This document shows, one piece after another, positions 1 through 56,104 of a stretch of DNA of 64,000 nucleotides. Within the stretch, counting starts at the first letter, position 1. Every line of letters starts with the position of its first letter. Where the stretch lies: IMG/VR virus record IMGVR_UViG_3300029288_000071, positions 64,001 to 128,000 of that record, one strand, 5' to 3'. The notes beneath the pieces were generated by a model. That model did not search any database. It was given only the letters and a program-made list of their open reading frames with translations, and was not told the origin of the DNA. Made by a program: the position numbers and the translations under genes. Origin of the DNA: a virus (taxonomy: Duplodnaviria > Caudoviricetes).

Positions 1-149
1 TCCAACAACAGTTGGATGTACAGGAGTCCATTGTCTTGTTTCAGGTCTAAAAGCTAAATCACAATCATAAATTATTTCAAAATCTTTTAACTTTCGATAA
101 TTTTCAGGAATATCAATATAATCATTATATTTGAGAATCATTTTCATTA

Positions 150-263
150 AAATATTCCGGTGTCCTACCTTTAGACGAAGAAAAAACCAGCTATAAATAC
201 TTATTATATACTTATACTTTAATGGTAAATTCTGTAAGATTCGGACTTACATTACCGGTTTTT
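150..263 (-). ncRNA. Circularly permuted tRNA-like RNA (T arm, closed acceptor hairpin, D arm)
   Basis: Minus strand reads CCGGT AAT GTAAG TCCGAAT CTTAC AGAATTTACCA, then a spacer, then TGGTTTTTTCT TC GTCTAAAGGTAGGAC ACCGG; the 3' half precedes the 5' half. Confidence 0.55.
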
Positions 264-265
264 AG

Positions 266-337
266 AGTCGGATATCAGATTTGCACTGATGTATTAGGTT
301 TTGCAGACCTATGCCTAAGCTACTCGACCAATCCGAC
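266..337 (-). tRNA. tRNA-Cys(GCA)
   Basis: Anticodon arm TAGGT-CTGCAAA-ACCTA; T loop TGCAAAT. Confidence 0.85.
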
Positions 338-648
338 ATTTCTGGCTATTAGCGGCCAGCTGCGCTGAGTAATTTTATTTATGAAAAATCAATATCATTA
401 AATTCTTCTAAATTTTTTAAAATATTTTTTGTAATTTTAAAAGTCCACCAGCAACCTAATACAATAGCTGCTAAAGTAAAAATTTTAGATGTTTTTTTCA
501 TTCTTTTATTTCTTCTAATTTTCCTCTACAATAAGGGCATTTATATAAAAATCTTGAAGGATCTGAAATACTTGGAAATTTTAATCGCTGAGTTTCCCAA
601 ATTTTCTTTTTACAATCTTCACATTGATATCGTTTTTCTTTTTCCATG

Positions 649-722
649 TGCCCGTTGTAGGTGTCGAACCCACTGTCTCTTCGGTGTAGACGAAGCGCTT
701 TATCCGGATAAGCTAAACAGGC
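649..722 (-). tRNA. tRNA-Val(TAC), C33
   Basis: CTTCG-TCTACAC-CGAAG; GGTTCGAC T loop. Confidence 0.85.
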
Positions 723-1285
723 AATTTAGGAACAATATAAATTACACCAACATTATCTCCTTCAGACTCATTGTTATACCAATATTCAAAATTTTCTCCG
801 TAAATTTGGTTAACTAATTTTTCTATACTTTCCCATTTATAAACAAAATCATAAAAAGTATCAAATTTAAGTTTAGGGTTGTTTGGATTGTAAAAATCAT
901 GTATTACAATAATTGGTTTAACTTTACAGTGTTCTGCTATTATTTCTAATTCTTTTGAAGTTGGAGTATCATAATAACCATGTGCATCTAAGAAAAACAA
1001 ACATCTATCTTTTATTTCATCTAAAAGTTTTGGAAGTATTTTTCTTGAATCTCCTAAGAAAAAATTAATATTTGAAATTTTGCTACAATTAATTTTTGCT
1101 TGATCAAAATGTTTTTGTTCTACTTCTATTCCATAAACTTGTTTAAAGTTCTCTGATAACCAGGTTGATGTACATCCTATATGAGAACCTGTTTCAATAG
1201 CAGTATCAATATTGAATTGATCTCTCAATTTAATAATCATTTTTGCAACAAATCTATCACCACTAAAATAATCTACTTCATTCAT
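713..1285 (-). CDS. Class I SAM-dependent methyltransferase
   Basis: IETGSHIGCTS motif I, GIE, GDS, FFLDAH, VIHD. Confidence 0.75.
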   Translation of the reverse strand: MNEVDYFSGDRFVAKMIIKLRDQFNIDTAIETGSHIGCTSTWLSENFKQVYGIEVEQKHFDQAKINCSKISNINFFLGDSRKILPKLLDEIKDRCLFFLDAHGYYDTPTSKELEIIAEHCKVKPIIVIHDFYNPNNPKLKFDTFYDFVYKWESIEKLVNQIYGENFEYWYNNESEGDNVGVIYIVPKLPV

Positions 1286-1292
1286 AATAATA

Positions 1293-1321
1293 AATATAAA
1301 ATATTAAGTATTAAATGTAAA
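1293..1321 (-). promoter_or_regulatory. Sigma70-like promoter TTTACA-N17-TATATT
   Basis: One of six copies with exact 17-nt spacing. Confidence 0.7.
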
Positions 1322-1334
1322 CAAAAATTTTTTG

Positions 1335-1408
1335 TAGGCCCAGAAGGTACCGCCCCTTCTCCTCCCGGTTAAAAGCCGGGTGCTTTCCACTATTAGAGCT
1401 TTGAGCCC
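1335..1408 (-). tRNA. tRNA-Lys(TTT), non-canonical T loop
   Basis: CCCGG-CTTTTAA-CCGGG; T arm GAAGG-GGCGGTA-CCTTC. Confidence 0.8.
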
Positions 1409-1412
1409 AACA

Positions 1413-1640
1413 TTAATAACCAATCTTTTTCATTAAATCTGTTACTTTCTTTTGTTCTTCTATAACTTTTTGTTTTTCTTCAGTAGCTTTATATTTTGCT
1501 GGACGGATAGCTGTATGATGTATATCATAGCAAATTGCTGGCTTTTTACAATTTTCACATGGGCCTCTGCTTCTTGAAGCTATATCTGCCCAAAAATCAT
1601 CAATATTAAATTTTTTAAGACATTCATCACATAAGAACAT
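1413..1640 (-). CDS. Small Zn-finger protein with C-terminal LMKKIGY module
   Basis: CxxC...CxxC; ends TDLMKKIGY. Confidence 0.7.
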   Translation of the reverse strand: MFLCDECLKKFNIDDFWADIASRSRGPCENCKKPAICYDIHHTAIRPAKYKATEEKQKVIEEQKKVTDLMKKIGY

Positions 1641-1824
1641 TTTAACCTCTTTCAGAATATTTCTTTTTTAGATACTGTCCTCGTAACTTTTTATCTTTAT
1701 AGTGTCTCCACTTATACAAAATAATAAGTGGATCATAGGCTCTGTTCCAATTCTTTTCAAAACCTCTACGACAGCGTTTTGCTTTTACACCATTTCCGAA
1801 AATCATTCCTATTAAATTCATAGG

Positions 1825-1900
1825 TCGGCATAGTAGGAATTGAACCTACCTAAACTTGCTTATAAGACAAGGCGAATGCGACCAGCTTCGTTTTATGCCG
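1825..1900 (-). tRNA. tRNA-Ile(TAT)
   Basis: CTTGT-CTTATAA-GCAAG; perfect acceptor stem CGGCATA/TATGCCG. Confidence 0.8.
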
Positions 1901-2027
1901 GATTTTACCATCTATCAAGAGGATCTTTTTTGCTAAAACAAAAATAAGTTAATCCTACAATCATATAAATTATTAACCCTATAGCAACTAAATCTCCAGG
2001 TTTCATGGTATCTCCTTTTTAATTTAT

Positions 2028-2222
2028 CTATGATTGAATTACATATACATGATGCAAATTTTCATATTCTTCTTTGGCTTGTTCTATATCTGTTTCTTGA
2101 ATAACTTTTTCTGTTAATTTTCTATCTTCATGTTCTTTAGGCTTCCATCGATTGGAATGCCCAGTTTTATGGGGTTTACATAAAGGACAACTTCTTCGTT
2201 TATTCTTTAGTTGTTTTCTCAT
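2028..2222 (-). CDS. Small basic protein with CxxC-H motif
   Basis: MRKQLKNKRRSCPLCKPHK; the ORF-track start lies inside a tRNA-like gene. Confidence 0.6.
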   Translation of the reverse strand: MRKQLKNKRRSCPLCKPHKTGHSNRWKPKEHEDRKLTEKVIQETDIEQAKEEYENLHHVYVIQS

Positions 2223-2247
2223 ATAGATTTTCGTTTTTACTAATAAA

Positions 2248-2389
2248 TGGTGGAGCCATCCGGATTTTACCAGCATCTCTCTACTTTCATGATAGAGCGT
2301 TCTTTAGACTTCAAAATAGTTTAATGAAATATTTAATGGCTTAAGCCAGTATTTCAGCCATTAAGCAATCTAGTTTGAACTATGACCCC
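2248..2389 (-). tRNA. Atypical tRNA-like gene with about 70-nt D-loop insertion, anticodon ambiguous
   Basis: Acceptor GGGGTCA/TGGCTCC-A-CCA; D stem GTTC/GAAC encloses a long structured insert; anticodon arm CTCTAT-CATGAAA-GTAGAG. Confidence 0.55.
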
Positions 2390-2396
2390 GTTATTG

Positions 2397-2468
2397 CAGA
2401 CCTAAGTGGTGCCGCCCCACTATCCCTTGGTTCAAAGCCAAGTGCTTCTACTGTTGAGCTATAGGTCC
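2397..2468 (-). tRNA. tRNA-Gln(TTG), non-canonical T loop
   Basis: CTTGG-CTTTGAA-CCAAG; T loop GGCGGCA. Confidence 0.8.
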
Positions 2469-2684
2469 ATTTTCTAACTTAAAAACGCTTGTTTTATGTT
2501 GAACAATTATAAATTTTGTGTGACAATTTTTACATTCATAAGGATCATTTTCATCAATAGAAATAAACAAATCATCATCACCATAATCAAATCCGCATTC
2601 AGGACAGTATTTAAGTGCTAAAAGTTCTTCTTCTTCCCAACTTTTCCAAAATTTAACTTTGTCTGTAATATCTATTTTATTCAT
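2448..2684 (-). CDS. Small Zn-ribbon protein
   Basis: CPECG...CKNCH. Confidence 0.65.
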   Translation of the reverse strand: MNKIDITDKVKFWKSWEEEELLALKYCPECGFDYGDDDLFISIDENDPYECKNCHTKFIIVQHKTSVFKLENGPIAQQ

Positions 2685-2686
2685 AG

Positions 2687-2770
2687 TGCGAATATAGGGA
2701 CTTGAACCCTAACGAGATTTCTCTCACTGGCTTCTTAGACCAGCACGTATTCCAATTCCGTCATATTCGC
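2687..2770 (-). tRNA. tRNA-Leu(AAG)
   Basis: CTGGT-CTAAGAA-GCCAG; long variable arm. Confidence 0.85.
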
Positions 2771-2775
2771 GTTAG

Positions 2776-2848
2776 AGCACCATAAGGGAGTCGAACCCTT
2801 CTATCTGGTTTGGAAGACCAGCTCCTAAAGCCGCTCGGACAATGATGC
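2776..2848 (-). tRNA. tRNA-Gly(TCC)
   Basis: CTGGT-CTTCCAA-ACCAG. Confidence 0.85.
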
Positions 2849-2850
2849 GT

Positions 2851-3108
2851 TTATAGATATTTCTTAATTAAATATTTCTTATTTATTTTAAATTTTTTCA
2901 ATGTAGAATCTGGAACATCCCAAGGATATTCTAAAACTGGATATTTTTTTATACACATTACGATTTTACCACATTTGGGACATTTATGCTCATATCGAGC
3001 TAATTCTGCATCTGTTTTTTCCCATCCTGTATATTCTACAATACCTTTTTTACATTTTTCACATATCCAATCATGTGAAAACATTTTGAATAAAGAATAT
3101 TTATGCAT
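2851..3108 (-). CDS. Small Zn-ribbon protein
   Basis: CEKC...CPKCG. Confidence 0.6.
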   Translation of the reverse strand: MHKYSLFKMFSHDWICEKCKKGIVEYTGWEKTDAELARYEHKCPKCGKIVMCIKKYPVLEYPWDVPDSTLKKFKINKKYLIKKYL

Positions 3109-12681: not shown

Positions 12682-12764
12682 TTTATAAGCGAGAAGTAAT
12701 TACCGTCTGCCCAGGGGCAGACTAGGAGTTGAACCTAGTTATTAGGAACTTCTTTTGCCTATAA
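12682..12764 (-). ncRNA. Repeat ncRNA copy 1, with T arm and closed acceptor-like hairpin
   Basis: GGC-AAA-AGAAGT-TCCTAAT...CTAGG-TTCAACT-CCTAG, TCTGCC-CCTG-GGCAGA, CGGTAA...ACTTCT-C-GCT. Confidence 0.7.
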
Positions 12765-12770
12765 AAAGTT

Positions 12771-12823
12771 TTAGACGGAGAGTAATTGCCTTCAAATGAT
12801 TATTAGGAACTCTCTATGTCTAA
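12771..12823 (-). ncRNA. Repeat ncRNA copy 2
   Basis: TTAGAC-ATA-GAGAGT-TCCTAAT...ACTCTC-C-GTCTAA; compensatory changes. Confidence 0.7.
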
Positions 12824-12832
12824 TTAAAATTC

Positions 12833-12891
12833 GAAGACGAGAAGTATTTTCTTTCATGTAAGGAATTTTATTAGGAACTTCTTATGTCTTC
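12833..12891 (-). ncRNA. Repeat ncRNA copy 3
   Basis: GAAGAC-ATA-AGAAGT-TCCTAAT...ACTTCT-C-GTCTTC. Confidence 0.7.
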
Positions 12892-12907
12892 TTTAAAAAA
12901 ACGGTTC

Positions 12908-13071: not shown

Positions 13072-13637
13072 CATTTCAATTTCAAGTATTCTTGAACTTT
13101 ATCAAAAACTTCTTTTTTGTATTTTGAATGAATATAACCATGATGATTTCTGCATAATGGAACTAGATTTTCAGGTCTATTGTCATTGTGAATTAAATTT
13201 ATGTGATGTGCACAAACCATTTTTTCTTCAGGACATATAATACATTTTTTGCCATGATGCTTAAAACAAATTGTTCTATAACTAAATGTTGATTTAGTTC
13301 CATTTTTCTTAAAATTTTCGGCTCTTACAAGGGCTCCAACTTTATTGGAGCATTTTCTAGAACAATAATACTTTTCTTTTTTTGGAAATTCTTTTTCATA
13401 TTCTTCAACATCAAATTTACATTTACAAATTTCACAAACAACTTTAAATATTTTTTTCTTTCCTTTTATTCTTTCAGTTCTAGCAATATTTCCTTTTGCT
13501 AATTTTTCTCTAGTTTGTTGGGAAATAAAAATTCTGTTCTTATTTGAAGAACATCTATTTTGATGATAAGAAATTCCAGTTTTTGTTGTAAAAATTTTTC
13601 TATTACAAAATTTACATATTTGATTTTCTTTTTCCAT
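13062..13637 (-). CDS. HNH homing endonuclease with Zn fingers
   Basis: CIIC...AHHINLIHNDNRPENLVPLCRNHH; YYCSRKC. Confidence 0.85.
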   Translation of the reverse strand: MEKENQICKFCNRKIFTTKTGISYHQNRCSSNKNRIFISQQTREKLAKGNIARTERIKGKKKIFKVVCEICKCKFDVEEYEKEFPKKEKYYCSRKCSNKVGALVRAENFKKNGTKSTFSYRTICFKHHGKKCIICPEEKMVCAHHINLIHNDNRPENLVPLCRNHHGYIHSKYKKEVFDKVQEYLKLKWGP

Positions 13638-20777: not shown

Positions 20778-22312
20778 TAGATAATTCTCCAATTTATACC
20801 ATTACTAATAACGTGCATAGCACAATCCATTGGTATTGTTTGTGATGTTAAACTTTGTATTGTTTGACTTCCTGTAGCTTTTACAGTAATATTTCCTGTT
20901 GAAGCATTATCAATAATATAGTTCATTCCTTTTGCTGTTGCTGATGGTAAAGTTATAATTTTTTCTGAAGCAGTAACAGAAATAAAATAATCAGATGATG
21001 AAATAGAATAATTAGTATCAATAGCTGAAACTGTTAAAAATCTTGATAAATTTAAATATTGATTTGAATTAAAATGATAATATGCACCAACTTCTCCACC
21101 TTGAATATTTGCTAAATCATTGTGGTTTGTTACACTTCCTGCTTGAAAGCTTGTTGTAAAAGCACTATCAATTTTAACAGCATCTGCAACTCCTTGTTGA
21201 ACAATTATTCTTCCTATCAAAATACCTAATGCTGAAAAAATTAAAGGTACAGCCGGTATATCAGCAACTGCAGCTTCTGCTAATGAATTATATTGCGCTG
21301 TGTCAAAAATATAACCTACTACATTTCCTAGAAGTTGACTAGAAGAAACTTTTTTATAAATCCAAAGTGAAGTAAATTTATTATTGCCGAGTTCTAATTT
21401 TCCTGTAGCACCCTGATAAGCTGTATTGCTAAATTGAGTTACAATAGATGGACTCCAACTAACACCATTATAGACCCACTCTCTTAATGTACAACCACTG
21501 AGATTAGACTGAAAATCATTAAAACTTATTTCATTAGCTCCATACCAGATAGTACCAGCACTAACTTTTATGTATCTTGTTGTTTGCTCTGATAAAATTA
21601 GTCCTGATGCTCGACTAAATCTTTCTGTTTTTACAAATCTTCTATTTAATTTATTCGGTAAACCATTTGCTAATGTATCCCAAGAAAGATAGTCAACTGC
21701 AGTTCCTAATCTATAAAGTGTTAAAATAGGAATGATTGATGTATTATTAATAAATGATACATCTGTTATATTTTGAAGTATAGGTAAGCCATCATTATAG
21801 TTAGCAACAAGATAATTTGTTACATCATCTGTTGCTGTAAAAGAGCCACCTGATAAAGTGTATTGAACTACTAATCCAGTTGCACCTGAATTTGTATACA
21901 GATTATAAACACCTGAACCTACTGTATAAGATCCATTTATATTATCTAGAAAAGAAGGAAGTGTTTCTACACCAGCATTAACATAATCTAATTTACTTGT
22001 TATAGAATCTTCAATATCAGTAATAACTTTAGAAGTTATTGTTACTGCTGCAGCCATTCCTGGATTAATTTCTTGTGCTACTGATCCTTCTTGAGCTCTT
22101 AATACACTAAGAGTATTCCCAATTACTCCCATTACTCTTACTATTTCTGAATTTGTTGATAGAGGTAATGCAGTTGTAGGGTAAACCGTCATATTATATG
22201 GCGGAGTCAAATTAGGAGGAGCAACTACATCAAAACTAGTTCCAGAAAGTTTAGGAATTGGAGAAGTAACAACTGTTGTATAGCCAAAATTTATATGTTT
22301 ATCAAAAGACAT
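20777..22312 (-). CDS. Tail fibre or virion structural protein
   Basis: EIVRV...VLRAQEGS; HNDLANIQGG..YYH; ITLPSA...SNGINWRII. Confidence 0.65.
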   Translation of the reverse strand: MSFDKHINFGYTTVVTSPIPKLSGTSFDVVAPPNLTPPYNMTVYPTTALPLSTNSEIVRVMGVIGNTLSVLRAQEGSVAQEINPGMAAAVTITSKVITDIEDSITSKLDYVNAGVETLPSFLDNINGSYTVGSGVYNLYTNSGATGLVVQYTLSGGSFTATDDVTNYLVANYNDGLPILQNITDVSFINNTSIIPILTLYRLGTAVDYLSWDTLANGLPNKLNRRFVKTERFSRASGLILSEQTTRYIKVSAGTIWYGANEISFNDFQSNLSGCTLREWVYNGVSWSPSIVTQFSNTAYQGATGKLELGNNKFTSLWIYKKVSSSQLLGNVVGYIFDTAQYNSLAEAAVADIPAVPLIFSALGILIGRIIVQQGVADAVKIDSAFTTSFQAGSVTNHNDLANIQGGEVGAYYHFNSNQYLNLSRFLTVSAIDTNYSISSSDYFISVTASEKIITLPSATAKGMNYIIDNASTGNITVKATGSQTIQSLTSQTIPMDCAMHVISNGINWRII

Positions 22313-22315
22313 CTA

Positions 22316-24448
22316 TTAATCTTTCTTATTTTTTAACCAATTTTTTGCTTCTTTTGTAAGCTGAGATTCTCTTATTTTAATAGTTTTCTTTGAACCAGGA
22401 ATCTTTTGTAGAATATCTTTTTTAACAGAACTTGGAGATGTTTCTGGAATAACATAATTTTGTAAATCCATTTGTAGATGTTCTATTTCATTATCATTGT
22501 TATATCTACTATATTTTGGATTTTTATCAAGAAATTTTTTGATTTCCATATAAGTTAGATCAGTTGACTTGTAATGTTTTGCTAAATCAGCAACTACATC
22601 ACTAGAATCTCTGAATTTCATTTCTTTCAATCCCTTCTTAATAGTCATATTTGTGCTACTATCAGTCTGAAATTTCAATCCTTTAGGCAATTCAGCTTTA
22701 TCATTATTCTTCTTATCATCTTCTAACTGACATTCACAAGCATTAGCAGGCATTCCACATTTCTCACATTCTCTATTGATATTTGGGATCCCTGACATGC
22801 CTCCCATCCATTCTTTAACAATTTTTTTAATTTCTTTTATGTTCTTATTTTTAGAAAGAGCATATTTTCTAATTTTTTCTTGAACATCTTTATCTAATTC
22901 TGACCAAATTTTATCAGCATATTTATTTGATATGTTATAAGCAGCTGAATCTCCCAGATTTTTATAAACTGATCGAAGTAAATCTATTCTACCAAATTTA
23001 GAAATTCTATCCCATTCATCTTCAATATTAGCCATTTCAAACATTGCACCTGCTCTATAAGTAATTGGATCTCTAGTCATAGCAACTTTATTATAGATTT
23101 TTATAGCTATATCTTTAGGAACATTAAATTTTCTCATTGCTCCTGTAATCAAGTATTGCTTATCATCAAGTTGATCATAAGCTTGATCTATCCAAGCTTC
23201 TGCATCAGATGACCATTCATTCCCTGTGCCTTCTTTTAATCTATTTTTATGTTGTAAAGCTAAGGCAAGAGCTTGAGCAAAAAGATCAGGACTGCTTTTA
23301 GCTACACTTTCCCAACCATATCCTGTATCAGAAGCATGACTATATATTCTATCTAATTGTTTATCTAAATATTTGTCATTTTCTTGACACCAAGAACTTA
23401 CATCATTAACTAATTTAATCTGTTTTTTGCTGAATGTTGAAGCATTTTCTTTAACAGAATTCACTCTATTCTTATCATTCAAATTAGCTCTTTCTAATCT
23501 CAATACTGTAGCAATTTCAAACAATACATTATTTTTTCCTGCATATGTTATTAAAGCTTCTAAATCTCTTTCTTGCCATTTATCTAATGGAGTTTTAGCC
23601 ATTTGAGGTCTGTTAGAAGAATTAGCAATTTTTTCTTTATCAGGTTGTGGTAGTTGTTCCCACCACATTGCTAATTGTTTTAAGGCAGCTTCTGTTAATA
23701 CTTTTTTGTTTTCTTTTTTAAGATAAGATTGCATTTTTTCTTCTTTATCTTTAATTTGTTTTTCAATTTCTTGTAAGGTTTTTTCTTCTCTTTGAATCTT
23801 TTCTATTCTATCTTGAGGATAAAGATACATAGTAGCAATTTGAGACTTTAAAGTATTCTTTTTTGTTTTAAGATCTCTTATATCTCTAGCTAACTGAACT
23901 AATTCAGGACTAATATCTTCTTTCATTAATTTATTTTCTTTTTTAGGACTTACAAAATATAAATCTTGTGAATCTATAAAAAATTTATCTTTTTGTTTTG
24001 GATCAAATACATATACTTTTCCATGATAATTATCATTTTTAACTACTAATTTAATTCCATATTTGTCATAAAAAGTATCATCAATGTATATTGGTTCACC
24101 ATCTTTTGTTTTTAATGGTTTTGAATAATCAGTTTCTTCTTTCATGACTCCTTCTTTTATAGGAACGGTAACATAAATTGGCTTACCTTCTCTATTAAAA
24201 GCTAAATATAAAGTATTCCCAAATTTATCTTTCTTTGTTTTAGGTAATGAATTTTCTTTATACATAGACGCTTGACCCCAATTATAAAATGGACCATCTT
24301 TATATTTGTCTTTATTTCGATTGAATTCTTCTTTAGGAGTCTGAATTATTTCTCTATCCCAAGTTACAGCCCAAACATTTCCAGGTTTGAGTTCATCTCC
24401 CTGTTGAACTTTTTTTAGTAATGTCTTTTTTAATGCTTGATGTGCCAT
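22316..24448 (-). CDS. Putative internal head polyprotein
   Basis: Small domains separated by [LIVM]-x-E sites. Confidence 0.55.
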   Translation of the reverse strand: MAHQALKKTLLKKVQQGDELKPGNVWAVTWDREIIQTPKEEFNRNKDKYKDGPFYNWGQASMYKENSLPKTKKDKFGNTLYLAFNREGKPIYVTVPIKEGVMKEETDYSKPLKTKDGEPIYIDDTFYDKYGIKLVVKNDNYHGKVYVFDPKQKDKFFIDSQDLYFVSPKKENKLMKEDISPELVQLARDIRDLKTKKNTLKSQIATMYLYPQDRIEKIQREEKTLQEIEKQIKDKEEKMQSYLKKENKKVLTEAALKQLAMWWEQLPQPDKEKIANSSNRPQMAKTPLDKWQERDLEALITYAGKNNVLFEIATVLRLERANLNDKNRVNSVKENASTFSKKQIKLVNDVSSWCQENDKYLDKQLDRIYSHASDTGYGWESVAKSSPDLFAQALALALQHKNRLKEGTGNEWSSDAEAWIDQAYDQLDDKQYLITGAMRKFNVPKDIAIKIYNKVAMTRDPITYRAGAMFEMANIEDEWDRISKFGRIDLLRSVYKNLGDSAAYNISNKYADKIWSELDKDVQEKIRKYALSKNKNIKEIKKIVKEWMGGMSGIPNINRECEKCGMPANACECQLEDDKKNNDKAELPKGLKFQTDSSTNMTIKKGLKEMKFRDSSDVVADLAKHYKSTDLTYMEIKKFLDKNPKYSRYNNDNEIEHLQMDLQNYVIPETSPSSVKKDILQKIPGSKKTIKIRESQLTKEAKNWLKNKKD

Positions 24449-51919: not shown

Positions 51920-52439
51920 TTTTCACGCCATATAGGGCAATGATATACGAGTCCGCCATATCATAACATTCAGGAATTATTTTTCCTTTATTTCTACCTT
52001 TATTTTTTAAGGGCCAAGTGAAGAGCTTACAATTAGAATTTATCCACTTGAAAACTTCTTCTTTTGCATTTACTCCTTTAGGATAACGACCTATTCCTAT
52101 AATTGATTTTCTAGCAGATGATGCCATTATTTCTATAGGAAAAGTATTAAATTTTTTACATAGTGTAAATAAAAAAGCACCATTAAAACGCAATATTGTG
52201 CTAAGTACTTGTGCAGAAGATAATCCTTTACTAAACATCATGTTAGGTTGTTCAGCATAAATTTTATCAACTGTAAAGTCTTTAAGTTTTTTATCGAATT
52301 GTTCAATTGCAGAGTTAAGTTTTTCAAATAAAGTATCACCAACTGGTTTAATATAATCAATTAAAATTAAGTTTTTGTTTTCATCTAAAATAGTTAAGCC
52401 TACAGTAGAAGTACTTATGTCAAGCCCTAAAATATTCAA
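51900..52439 (-). CDS. RuvC-like Holliday junction resolvase
   Basis: ILGLDISTSTVG, YAE, DMADS. Confidence 0.85.
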   Translation of the reverse strand: MNILGLDISTSTVGLTILDENKNLILIDYIKPVGDTLFEKLNSAIEQFDKKLKDFTVDKIYAEQPNMMFSKGLSSAQVLSTILRFNGAFLFTLCKKFNTFPIEIMASSARKSIIGIGRYPKGVNAKEEVFKWINSNCKLFTWPLKNKGRNKGKIIPECYDMADSYIIALYGVKNESTTN

Positions 52440-52852
52440 ACTTCGTATCCGATTTTCTTCATTAGCTTAGTGATTTCATCTATTGATCCAAATATTTGTT
52501 GTTCAAATTGTATAATTCGTTTAATTTGTATAGAATGATGTGGAGATGTGCAATAATAAGCTGTTTTTAATAAAGGAACATCAACATCTGAAAAATCAAA
52601 TTCATCAAAAAAATATTTGTTATTTTGTTTTGACCGAACGATGTGATCATTACTATGTAATTGATTGTAAGTTATTATTTGAATTTTTTTGGGATCTGAA
52701 CAATCATATTTCTTTTTTATTAAATCTCGCATGCTATAACTTGGAACAACAATAGTGGCTGTTCCATTTCCTGATAAAACCCATTGATGAACAGCTTGCA
52801 TCATACGGTGAGTTTTTCCACTTTGTCTTGGAGAGATATCAAGTTCCATCAT
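52436..52852 (-). CDS. Mini terminase-ATPase-like protein with LMKKIGY module
   Basis: SPRQSGKT Walker A, FFDE Walker B, CTSP; EITKLMKKIGY. Confidence 0.7.
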   Translation of the reverse strand: MMELDISPRQSGKTHRMMQAVHQWVLSGNGTATIVVPSYSMRDLIKKKYDCSDPKKIQIITYNQLHSNDHIVRSKQNNKYFFDEFDFSDVDVPLLKTAYYCTSPHHSIQIKRIIQFEQQIFGSIDEITKLMKKIGYEV

Positions 52853-52853
52853 T

Positions 52854-53327
52854 TTATAATTCAGTTTCTAATTCTATTCCATTTTCATTAATATTTTTTT
52901 CAACTTTAACTTTAATAGGTTCAATTTTTTCAGGTATCTCAGCTATACTTAATTCAGAAAGTGAATCTGATTTTACCTTTCTAATGAAAGGTGATTTTGT
53001 TATTAAATCTAATTCAGCAAGAATTTTTGTATAATCAGTTTTAGTTTGTTTTTCTTTTGGATCTTTATTAGCTTCATCTTCAGTTTGTCGTAATTTTTGC
53101 ATTACTTGAGCTAATTTTACTAAAATATCAGCTTGTCTACTAGCTTGCTCAAGCCAACGGTCTGCCATTTGAGAAAGAACTACTAAATCTCCTTTATTAC
53201 TCAGCATTGCAGTTTCCATGTGTTGGTACAGTTTATTTGCTTTATTGCGATTCTCTTCAGTTTCATCCATGATTCTTTGGATTAACTTAATAATATCTTC
53301 TTTTTCGTATCCTGTGATATTTGTCAT
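52854..53327 (-). CDS. Helical hypothetical protein
   Basis: 157-aa coiled-coil ORF. Confidence 0.55.
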   Translation of the reverse strand: MTNITGYEKEDIIKLIQRIMDETEENRNKANKLYQHMETAMLSNKGDLVVLSQMADRWLEQASRQADILVKLAQVMQKLRQTEDEANKDPKEKQTKTDYTKILAELDLITKSPFIRKVKSDSLSELSIAEIPEKIEPIKVKVEKNINENGIELETEL

Positions 53328-53687
53328 TAAGATATTTTTCTATTATAAATTAAAGGTCTTGAAATTCCTAAAATTTCTTGTGGTTGTTCAGCAGGTTTTT
53401 CATCAGGTATAATTTGCAATTCTGAATGTTTTTTAACAAGTTCTTCTATTCCATTCCTTACTGCTTTAGTGTTTTCAACAAACTGGAAAATTGTATCATC
53501 ATAATAATGAATATTTTGTTCAAATAAACTATTAATTTGTTGATGAAAATCCCACATTAAATGATAACTTTCAAGTAGATCATCTTGTAGCACATCTTGT
53601 TGTTGACTCATTTTATATAAAAGGAATGTAGCTATTCCTAATAAAATAATTAAAAAAGCTATAACTAACCATAAAATTATCATAACA

Positions 53688-54257
53688 TTACTCTATATGT
53701 GTAAAATAGTCTGCTGTATGTAAGAAAAACATTAGCTTATTTCTAGATTCTTTATGTACTTTGTTTTCTTCTAAGAACATTCCATCGTGCCCTAAAATTG
53801 CTAAATATTCATCATCAGTTAGACTAACTTCAAAATGTGTTAAAATTCTAATACTTCTTTGAGCATGACTTAATCCGTCTGGAAGTTTTGCATTATAATC
53901 AAAGAGCTGCCCTTTTTCAATTTTCCATCTTTCTTGAGTTTGAGTATAAAGCAATTCTCCTTTAATTGTTCCAATTTTTCCTAAGTCATGAAATAAACCG
54001 CAAATTAATCTAGATTCTTTAGAAGTTTCAGGTGCCCAAAGATCACAAAGTAAATTTAAGTTCTTTGTAACAGCAAGACTATGATGCAAAAGTCCGCCGG
54101 GGGCACAATCATGTAGTCCAATTCTGTAGCTTCCTGGAGCTGTAAAATATCTATCTCCTATAACACTTATCATATTATTAATTTTTGTCTTATTGGGTTC
54201 AGTAAATGAATCCATTGCTTTTTCAAATAATTTAATTTCTTCTTCAGTTTTGTTCAT
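53688..54257 (-). CDS. HD-domain hydrolase (YhaM-like)
   Basis: APGS...H..PGGLLHHS, FHDLGK, H, HDG, AD. Confidence 0.85.
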   Translation of the reverse strand: MNKTEEEIKLFEKAMDSFTEPNKTKINNMISVIGDRYFTAPGSYRIGLHDCAPGGLLHHSLAVTKNLNLLCDLWAPETSKESRLICGLFHDLGKIGTIKGELLYTQTQERWKIEKGQLFDYNAKLPDGLSHAQRSIRILTHFEVSLTDDEYLAILGHDGMFLEENKVHKESRNKLMFFLHTADYFTHIE

Positions 54258-55037: not shown

Positions 55038-56104
55038 AAGTGAATTATTTATTGAACTTCTTTTTCTACATCTTCTATTAAAATCATAGTATGAGAAGCT
55101 GGAAAGACTGCAAGTAATTCTTTCCCTTTTGTAACTGTCCAAGAATTATTCTCAGATTTTATTTGATGCGTATCTAAATCGTATCTATAGTGACGTAATC
55201 CAGTTGTTCTTGATTCGTTAGAATTTTTTCCTTGTTTTGTAAGTTCGAATCCTGTTACCAAAATATGATATTGTTTCATTTTTCATTTTCGTGTTTGGAA
55301 GTTTTTTATGTGTCATTTAATCGAAAACCAATTAGTTTAAATAAATAGCATTTTGTGTTATTGCTTTTAATAATTCAAATCTCTGTATATAATTCATTCT
55401 TTTTAACAAAAATAATTCTTGTAAATCTTTTAATTTATCACTATAATAAGAAGAATCAATAAATAATTCTTTATTTGTAATTTCTGTACATTCTTTTAAT
55501 ATTTCATTTAATTCAACTTTATCAGCTATAAATGAAGAAAAATGTGCATTAAATTCTGCACTTAAAGTATTTTGTAAGATAATATTTGGTTTAAAATGAT
55601 ACATTTTTTCTATTTGGTTTTATCGTTATAAAATCTTCTGTTTTAAATGGTTGTATTTTTGCTATTTCAGGACAAATTAATTTATAAAATTCTTTAATAG
55701 AAGCATCGTTATCAGTTTGAATGAAATTTAAATCAACTCCTAAAGAACAAGTTTGTTTTGAGTCTAGTTTTACAGAACTTAAGTCATGTTCATATGTAAA
55801 TCTAGAACCCTCATAAAACCAGTTTGTTAATTGTATCTCTTTACAGTTTTTGTCAATTGCAAATAATGATAATTTCTTTCTCAATAATTTCTTAAATTCT
55901 TCACATGATATAGCACCCTTAACTGGTATTAGAGAAAAACTTACATTTAAAATCAGTTGAAGAGGCTTAAGTTTTGATTCATACATTCCTTTTATTTTTA
56001 CATTATCAAAAGTTTCAGTTTTCAGATTTTTGAATTCCATAACATAACTCCTTTGCTATGCAAGTATTCAATCGTGGATTAGGTAAAACAAAAAATTAAA
56101 TTAC

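Follow-up and report, generated by a model that had tools for sequence, protein, structure and literature searches.

A putative tRNA-shaped RNA with permuted arms and a clamped CCA in the tRNA array of a large phage

The stretch of DNA analyzed here (the window; 64,000 nt) comprises bases 64001-128000 of the 207-kb IMG/VR phage record IMGVR_UViG_3300029288_000071, and positions below are those of the window unless another record is named. The phage record, which has a G+C content of 29%, derives from a landfill. On the minus strand of its first 15 kb, the window holds a tRNA array of 23 genes called by ARAGORN, several more recovered with Rfam, and a tmRNA, with small ORFs lying between the tRNAs; the phage encodes 27 or more tRNAs. 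The element of interest is located in the 117 nt that separate tRNA-Cys(GCA) (337..266) from the ATG (147) of an 84-aa ORF, all on the minus strand. Neither a sigma-70 promoter nor an intrinsic terminator is called within or beside the element on its own strand, and no relatives of the 84-aa ORF were detected.

Three genes upstream of the window lie within a few kilobases of the array start in the phage record (G000): those for an RtcB RNA ligase (52042-53250), a PRPP-synthetase-like protein (53324-54115), and a 217-aa nucleotidyltransferase of the ligase/capping-enzyme type (55210-55863). No CCA-adding enzyme (PF01743) was found in the phage. Further away, a protein of 267 aa (G000 21594-22397) bears a Por_Secre_tail domain, which serves type IX secretion sorting, and hints at a Bacteroidota host. 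Inside the tRNA array, a 190-aa class I methyltransferase-like protein is encoded at 713-1285 (minus strand); despite this location, it is probably not a tRNA methylase, since its relatives are mostly found in phage or bacterial glycosylation clusters, with the distant ones lacking tRNA arrays.

The original prediction read the minus strand directly after tRNA-Cys, which ends at 266, as a tRNA 3' half, a foldable spacer, and a tRNA 5' half, and every one of these pieces is found in the sequence at that place. The features of the region are as follows, with comparisons to homologues on two metagenomic contigs (L008 and L112) that are introduced below.

266..337, minus strand: tRNA-Cys(GCA), called by ARAGORN and scoring 53.7 bits with the Rfam tRNA model; 5' neighbor of the element in all three phages.
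259..265, minus strand: 7-nt linker (C UAAAAA) from the tRNA-Cys discriminator to the closing helix, read from the sequence; 4 nt in L008 and L112.
254..258, minus strand: 5' strand of the closing helix, CCGGU, which replaces the 3' strand of an anticodon stem and pairs with 161-157 (100% paired in the three sequences).
251..253, minus strand: variable-region analogue, AAU (AGAU in the homologues); by the alignment, its last U can make the 15-48 Levitt pair with A15.
234..250, minus strand: T-arm, with a 5-bp stem (GUAAG/CUUAC) and a 7-nt loop (UCCGAAU) that retains G53-C61, C56, G57, and A58.
227..233, minus strand: 3' strand of the acceptor-like helix, AGAAUUU; AGA/UCU is paired in 3/3 copies and is followed by a U-rich internal loop.
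223..226, minus strand: ACCA, with no free end, paired in cis with UGGU (189-186); CCA/UGG is invariant, and the N:N pair covaries.
218..222, minus strand: UUAAA asymmetric bulge, within CCAUUAAAG, a block identical in 3/3 copies.
190..217, minus strand: capping hairpin that seals the acceptor, of 9-10 bp here, 11 bp in L008, and 3 bp in L112, with three compensatory pairs.
186..189, minus strand: UGGU, the clamp on ACCA, by pair counts and RNAalifold.
177..185, minus strand: 5' strand of the acceptor-like helix, UUUUUCU (185-179), then U8 and C9; U8 is present in 3/3 copies.
162..176, minus strand: D-arm, with stem GUC(U)/(G)GAC and loop AAAGGUA, retaining A14, A15, G18, G19, and A21.
157..161, minus strand: 3' strand of the closing helix, ACCGG, by pair counts and RNAalifold.
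148..156, minus strand: A/U-rich linker of 9 nt before the AUG, read from the sequence; 10 nt in L008, and in L112 a 17-nt stretch to a tRNA-His-like gene.
1..147, minus strand: start of the 84-aa ORF, with its C-terminal LMQKIGY module; a variable 3' neighbor outside the element, missing at this position in L112.

Read along its strand (258..157), the element consists, in order, of a closing helix, a T-arm, an acceptor-like helix with ACCA, a capping hairpin, a D-arm, and the return strand of the closing helix; an anticodon loop is absent. CCGGU pairs with ACCGG, ACCA pairs with UGGU, and AGAA pairs with UUCU, after which come the three U-U mismatches in the acceptor that the original prediction had pointed out. 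The foldable spacer between the acceptor strands spans 222-186 and includes the A/U-rich capping hairpin. CCA is encoded in the element, whereas the adjoining tRNA-Cys is CCA-less; the T-loop of that tRNA reads UGCAAAU, i.e., odd T-loops also occur in real tRNAs of this phage.

A cloverleaf-type fold of the element has a predicted energy of -21.8 kcal/mol versus -23.3 kcal/mol for the minimum free energy (MFE) structure, which itself retains the closing helix, the ACCA/UGGU helix, and the hairpin. Folding energy by itself is weak evidence, the MFE z-score being only -2.2. When an artificial 7-nt loop is used to join the halves in the order of a tRNA, ARAGORN (default settings) calls a 72-nt tRNA; the L008 homologue, re-ordered likewise, is also called a tRNA, but with two padding bases borrowed in the acceptor. 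The native sequence receives no ARAGORN call and has no match among 4227 Rfam models, that of YrlA included, even at E<=10 (over positions 100-420, cmscan at this threshold matches only tRNA-Cys and one chance match).

Related phages carry the element. Two further copies are present in metagenomic phages, at 3080-3189 of L008 and at 13433-13519 of L112, each directly after tRNA-Cys and with an element-tRNA-Cys spacing of 4-7 nt across the three phages. L008 is a 3.7-kb ENA contig, reached through the 190-aa methyltransferase-like gene (66% protein identity), and its gene order is tRNA-Val, a 41-aa ORF, tRNA-Cys, the element, and an 81-aa ORF. L112 is a 39.6-kb JGI contig, reached through an 83%-identical relative of a 634-aa protein encoded in the window, and here tRNA-Cys (13358-13428) is followed by the element and then, after 17 nt, by the tRNA-His-like gene. 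A model built from the window copy alone scores 35.5 bits against L008 (E about 1e-6), and a two-sequence model scores 72.7 bits against L112. In L008 and L112, the element has a G+C content of 43% and 50%, respectively, versus backgrounds of roughly 30%. The local gene order of L112 is rearranged, with the unit of tRNA-Cys plus element intact: tRNA-Val and tRNA-Cys are separated by a Phage_endo_I gene (L112:12847-13359), and relocation has put the methyltransferase-like gene just after tRNA-His (L112:13611-14162).

In an alignment of the three sequences, 95.5% of the pair cells are standard and 8/32 pairs are changed on both sides, counts that are suggestive and not a formal covariation test, given n=3 and an alignment fitted to the model. 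In register-shifted controls, with the 3' partners slid by 1-3 columns, 34-45% of the cells are paired and at most one double change is seen; column shuffles attained the values of the alignment in 1 case of 500. Compensatory changes are distributed over the whole structure, including the closing helix (U-A to G-C and C-G to U-G), the T-stem (two pairs), the capping hairpin (three pairs), and the D-stem (U-A to A-U), and the N position of the NCCA/UGGN helix is A-U, U-A, or U.G beside an invariant CCA/UGG. RNAalifold, run without an imposed structure, also predicts this four-way junction and counts nine compensatory pairs. Within 30 nt, the homologues differ by indels of 1 nt (AAU versus AGAU) and 2 nt (AGAAUUUA versus AGAUUU), which rules out a coding reading of the element.

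The nucleotides that build the core of a tRNA are kept as well. In tRNA numbering, U8, A14, A15..U48, G18 G19, A21, G53-C61, and C56 G57 A58 are present in 3/3 copies, so that the contacts forming the tRNA elbow and core can, by sequence, form in all three, and G26 and A44 G45 are present in L008 and L112. The T-loop of L008 is the canonical UUCGAGC; its deviations elsewhere are a C at position 55 in the window copy and a G at position 54 in L112. The acceptor-like arm is built from an invariant AGA/UCU, a U-rich internal loop of variable size, the CCA/UGG helix, the UUAAA bulge, and a hairpin of 3-11 bp. It carries 2-3 U-U mismatches in a geometry that varies among the homologues: the distance from T-stem to CCA is 7 nt plus discriminator here and in L112, which is the tRNA spacing, but only 6 nt in L008. 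T-box RNAs hold the 3' end of a tRNA by pairing of the NCCA/UGGN type, and the element resembles them in this same pairing, which it forms in cis.

The ARAGORN call on the re-ordered halves, the two syntenic homologues, the compensatory changes in every helix, and the RNAalifold junction together place the pattern beyond chance, and the description as a tRNA look-alike that is circularly permuted, lacks an anticodon, and has its acceptor closed is upheld. The element is real, yet so far restricted to one small clade, with three copies known. The phage's own genome contains no second copy, and an Rfam search at gathering scores gave no match for the element in L008, L112, or L001, the contig of the window phage. 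BLAST of window positions 1-3000 against cultured phages gave no match, and IMG/VR locus searches with the 190-aa methyltransferase or the 84-aa ORF as a single protein returned nothing. Relatives of the 634-aa protein number in the thousands; among 78 IMG/VR phage records with this protein, a model search found the element in L112's record only, the 77 others being without it, and matches of 19-28 bits were adjacent-tRNA junctions or overlaps with annotated tRNAs. Such tRNA-dimer false positives were warned of by Chen et al. 2014 (PMC4201824). An early pattern (T-loop + AGA + CCATTAAAG) yielded only chance matches and ordinary tRNAs in IMG/VR and JGI metagenomes, although note that it was too strict and would also miss L112, whose T-loop starts with G. 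With a second pattern (CCATTAAAG...CTGG...TCTTSG), L112's record was the sole recovery from IMG/VR, and nothing real came up among the 80 matches listed for species genomes.

The element shares features with several known RNAs, as follows.

(i) YrlA RNAs (Rfam RF02553) have their genes on the same strand as a TROVE (Ro60/Rsr) gene and no more than about 4 kb from it. The order of T-arm, closed acceptor-like stem, and D-arm in their tRNA-like domain was described by Chen et al. 2014 (PMC4201824), as was a Ro-binding helix near the 5' end with the motif GNCGAAN0-1G. The element has this arm order, has its ends on the side of the anticodon stem, and, like YrlA, conserves the nucleotides of the tRNA tertiary contacts; YrlA is known from phages as well as bacteria, and the element is phage borne. 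Unlike YrlA, it has no Ro/Rsr-binding helix, and the motif is absent from the 5' parts of the three copies (UAAAAACCGGU, CAAGCUGGG, and CCAACCGGG); it has instead an NCCA clamped by UGGN, an invariant UUAAA bulge, a location in a tRNA array, and a fusion to tRNA-Cys. TROVE (PF05731) has no match in the whole 207-kb record, with control genomes matching as they should. Of the link to YrlA drawn in the original prediction, the arm order stands and membership in the family does not, there being no Rfam match, motif, or TROVE gene. The element would in effect be the tRNA-like module of a YrlA-type RNA minus its protein-binding handle, and it is best described as a form of tRNA mimic of the YrlA type that has no handle, whose CCA is clamped, and that is fused to tRNA-Cys.

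(ii) Y-like "handle" RNAs occur in the same tRNA array of the same phage, at 12690-12900, beside the gene for the 634-aa protein. Their handle, AGAAGU-UCCUAAUAA ... ACUUCU-C-GUCU, is seen at 12690-12900 and is absent from the element (148-264), which also differs from them in lying 10.5 kb from the 634-aa protein gene and in its extended CCA/UGG acceptor. In the handle RNA nearest that gene (12690-12762, minus strand), a hairpin resembling a T-arm (CUAGG UUCAACU CCUAG) is accompanied by a closed hairpin of 6 bp and a remnant containing GG; with neither a D-stem nor a closing helix, this RNA is a reduced version of a module found in IMGVR_UViG_3300032731_000128 (G073; L199:1340-1590). That module, which scores 37.6 bits against the element model (tRNA-dimer false positives, <=28 bits), runs CCGGA, GAU, T-arm, 7-bp closed hairpin, UG, D-arm, UCCGG, with a closing helix CCGGA/UCCGG, and is nested in the third of three tandem handle RNAs directly upstream of a 634-aa homologue. 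The L199 handle RNAs have no Rfam match, and ARAGORN finds no tRNA in this 3-kb stretch. DUF7873 has no match among 32 proteins scanned, including the neighboring ORFs of 40, 49, 84, and 190 aa, and no DUF7873 gene lies beside the element in any of the three phages.

(iii) Circularly permuted tRNA genes, as found in Cyanidioschyzon merolae and some archaea, are characterized by an anticodon loop, a bulge-helix-bulge (BHB) junction, a circular intermediate, and a decoding product. The element resembles them in having its 3' half precede its 5' half but has neither anticodon loop nor BHB junction.

(iv) Two-piece tmRNA has the same gene order of T-arm, acceptor 3' strand with CCA, intervening loop, and acceptor 5' strand; the element, however, is without the G3.U70 alanine identity, the tag reading frame, and the pseudoknots. 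A tmRNA piece was rejected on the grounds that positions 3:70 are U.U, A-U, and U.U in the copies, that no tmRNA match falls in the region, that a one-piece tmRNA is already present in the phage, and that a tRNA replaces the ORF in L112.

Four other identities were considered and rejected. A canonical tRNA (RF00005) would need a contiguous cloverleaf with an anticodon arm, which is missing, and only the re-ordered sequence passes ARAGORN. An intrinsic terminator has no minus-strand call, and the U-run is not conserved (AUUCUU in L008). An attP core derived from a tRNA 3' half is contradicted by the lack of a tyrosine integrase in the genome and by the covariation of both halves. A "GCA anticodon" obtained by joining the flanks in L008 has no U33 and fails in the other two copies.

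Our preferred reading, to which we assign a probability of roughly 0.55, is that the element is an independent gene whose product, a tRNA-shaped RNA of ~105-115 nt with no decoding role, is excised from the array transcript and probably serves as a decoy or scaffold. The element would be transcribed together with the tRNA array. RNase Z, cutting at the tRNA-Cys discriminator, would create its 5' end 4-7 nt before the closing helix, and cleavage or trimming back to the closing helix would create its 3' end or, in L112, RNase P acting at the following tRNA-His. Having no free CCA and no anticodon, such an RNA could be neither charged nor used for decoding and could act only by being bound. Its probable partner would be a protein that reads the tRNA elbow or acceptor arm and that is either titrated (decoy) or recruited (scaffold), the conserved surfaces on offer being the elbow, the clamped NCCA, and the UUAAA bulge. 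The search for a partner gene brought up no clear candidate: the genome has no TROVE, DUF7873 has no match among the 32 proteins, and the element shares no handle with the Y-like RNAs. A conflict over tRNA damage and repair would supply the context, as this phage carries RtcB, a ligase-like nucleotidyltransferase, Y-like handle RNAs, and 27 or more tRNAs; the concept of a tRNA-like partner has been reviewed for jumbo phages (PMC7824862).

Should the element be expressed, a sealed tRNA body would prove to be functional by itself and could provide a small bait for a tRNA-binding host or phage factor that is titrated or recruited in the contest of tRNA cleavage and repair. For the Y RNAs published as tRNA mimics (YrlA), the Ro60 partner is the defining feature; the present genome has no Ro60, and the tRNA-like module stands by itself in it, conserved and within a phage tRNA operon. 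tRNA arrays would also hold RNA genes that tRNA finders and Rfam overlook. The decoy function raised in the original prediction fits the anatomy of the element and is a candidate function. Its specific form, a decoy for a host defense enzyme that docks on the tRNA elbow and acceptor end, offering neither a cleavable anticodon loop nor a modifiable 3'-OH, we put forward only tentatively and at a low probability; if true, it would represent a new kind of RNA-based counter-defense, situated in a tRNA array and made by tRNA processing.

The main rival, against which the odds are clear but not long, holds that the sealed form is the precursor of a two-piece tRNA-like RNA: RNase P would cut at 186/185, the hairpin would be trimmed back to CCA (223), and a nicked RNA with a free CCA would result. 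The encoded CCA, the interval of exactly 7 nt plus discriminator between T-stem and CCA here and in L112, the invariant single-stranded, A/U-rich UUAAA that follows CCA, and the freely varying length of the capping hairpin are all consistent with such processing, for which the YrlA of M. smegmatis provides a precedent: this RNA, which has a 7-bp acceptor, is a substrate for cleavage by RNase P RNA in vitro, and in vivo it undergoes cleavage and acquires CCA (PMC4201824). In L008, however, the stretch before CCA is just 6 nt long, which shows that the copies do not conserve the geometry of a tRNA, and the first acceptor pairs are U-U mismatches. The covariation of NCCA/UGGN, moreover, argues for selection on the closed helix, which should hinder RNase P.

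That the element acts in cis within a polycistronic transcript, either as a structured 5' leader that would stabilize the mRNA of the 84-aa ORF or place it for translation, or as a processing aid or insulator for tRNA-Cys, we consider improbable, even though its constant proximity of 4-7 nt to tRNA-Cys and the lack of a terminator between element and ORF would suit such a role. An AUG without a Shine-Dalgarno site also lies 9 nt (here) or 10 nt (L008) past the closing helix. Shine-Dalgarno sites, however, are little used in Bacteroidota, and a missing site is expected if the host is a member of this group; a full tRNA elbow would be superfluous in a leader. L112 lacks the ORF, carries the tRNA-His-like gene 17 nt downstream, and has the element fully conserved, and since this 3' neighbor has changed while the linkage of element and tRNA-Cys persists, an independent RNA gene is favored over a leader or riboregulator of the ORF.

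The chances are slim that the element is a functionless relic, i.e., decayed tRNA halves or the remnant of a tandem duplication, perhaps with a side role as a terminator hairpin. Loss of the outer halves from a tandemly duplicated tRNA can yield a permuted layout, a U-run follows the hairpin here, and the few copies belong to a single clade. Nevertheless, no resident tRNA resembles either half, compensatory changes affect all helices, including those that unite the halves, and the element outlasts the local gene rearrangement in L112; an origin in two unrelated decayed tRNAs, which the original prediction had named as its undoing, is contradicted by the same findings. The terminator scan is empty on this strand, and the U-run gives way to AUUCUU in L008.

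The other possibility raised in the original prediction, a true permuted tRNA gene whose ends are ligated (e.g., by the phage's RtcB or ligase) and whose acceptor is opened to give a decoding tRNA, retains hardly any probability: ARAGORN passes the re-ordered halves and the phage encodes RtcB and a ligase-like nucleotidyltransferase, but an anticodon loop is missing and no sequence for one is conserved in the flanks (only 4-7 nt to tRNA-Cys on the 5' side, which makes a BHB motif impossible, and a 3' side that differs in 3/3 copies), RNase Z leaves a 5'-phosphate that RtcB cannot use, and the acceptor has 2-3 U-U mismatches and a variable length.

Two observations concern the flanking tRNA-His(GUG)-like gene, which lies just before the window start (L001:1190-1261, minus strand), where it overlaps the final codons of the 84-aa ORF, and also occurs at L008:3450-3521 and L112:13537-13608. 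These genes are missed by ARAGORN but score 36.7-43.4 bits with the Rfam tRNA model (43.4 bits in L112), with the anticodon GUG read by eye from CUGUGAA. In L008, a 124-nt ORF-free gap (L008:3523-3646) separates this gene from tRNA-Leu(CAA), and its complementary ends (GCGGUUA ... UAACCGC) suggest that it may be another small structured RNA.
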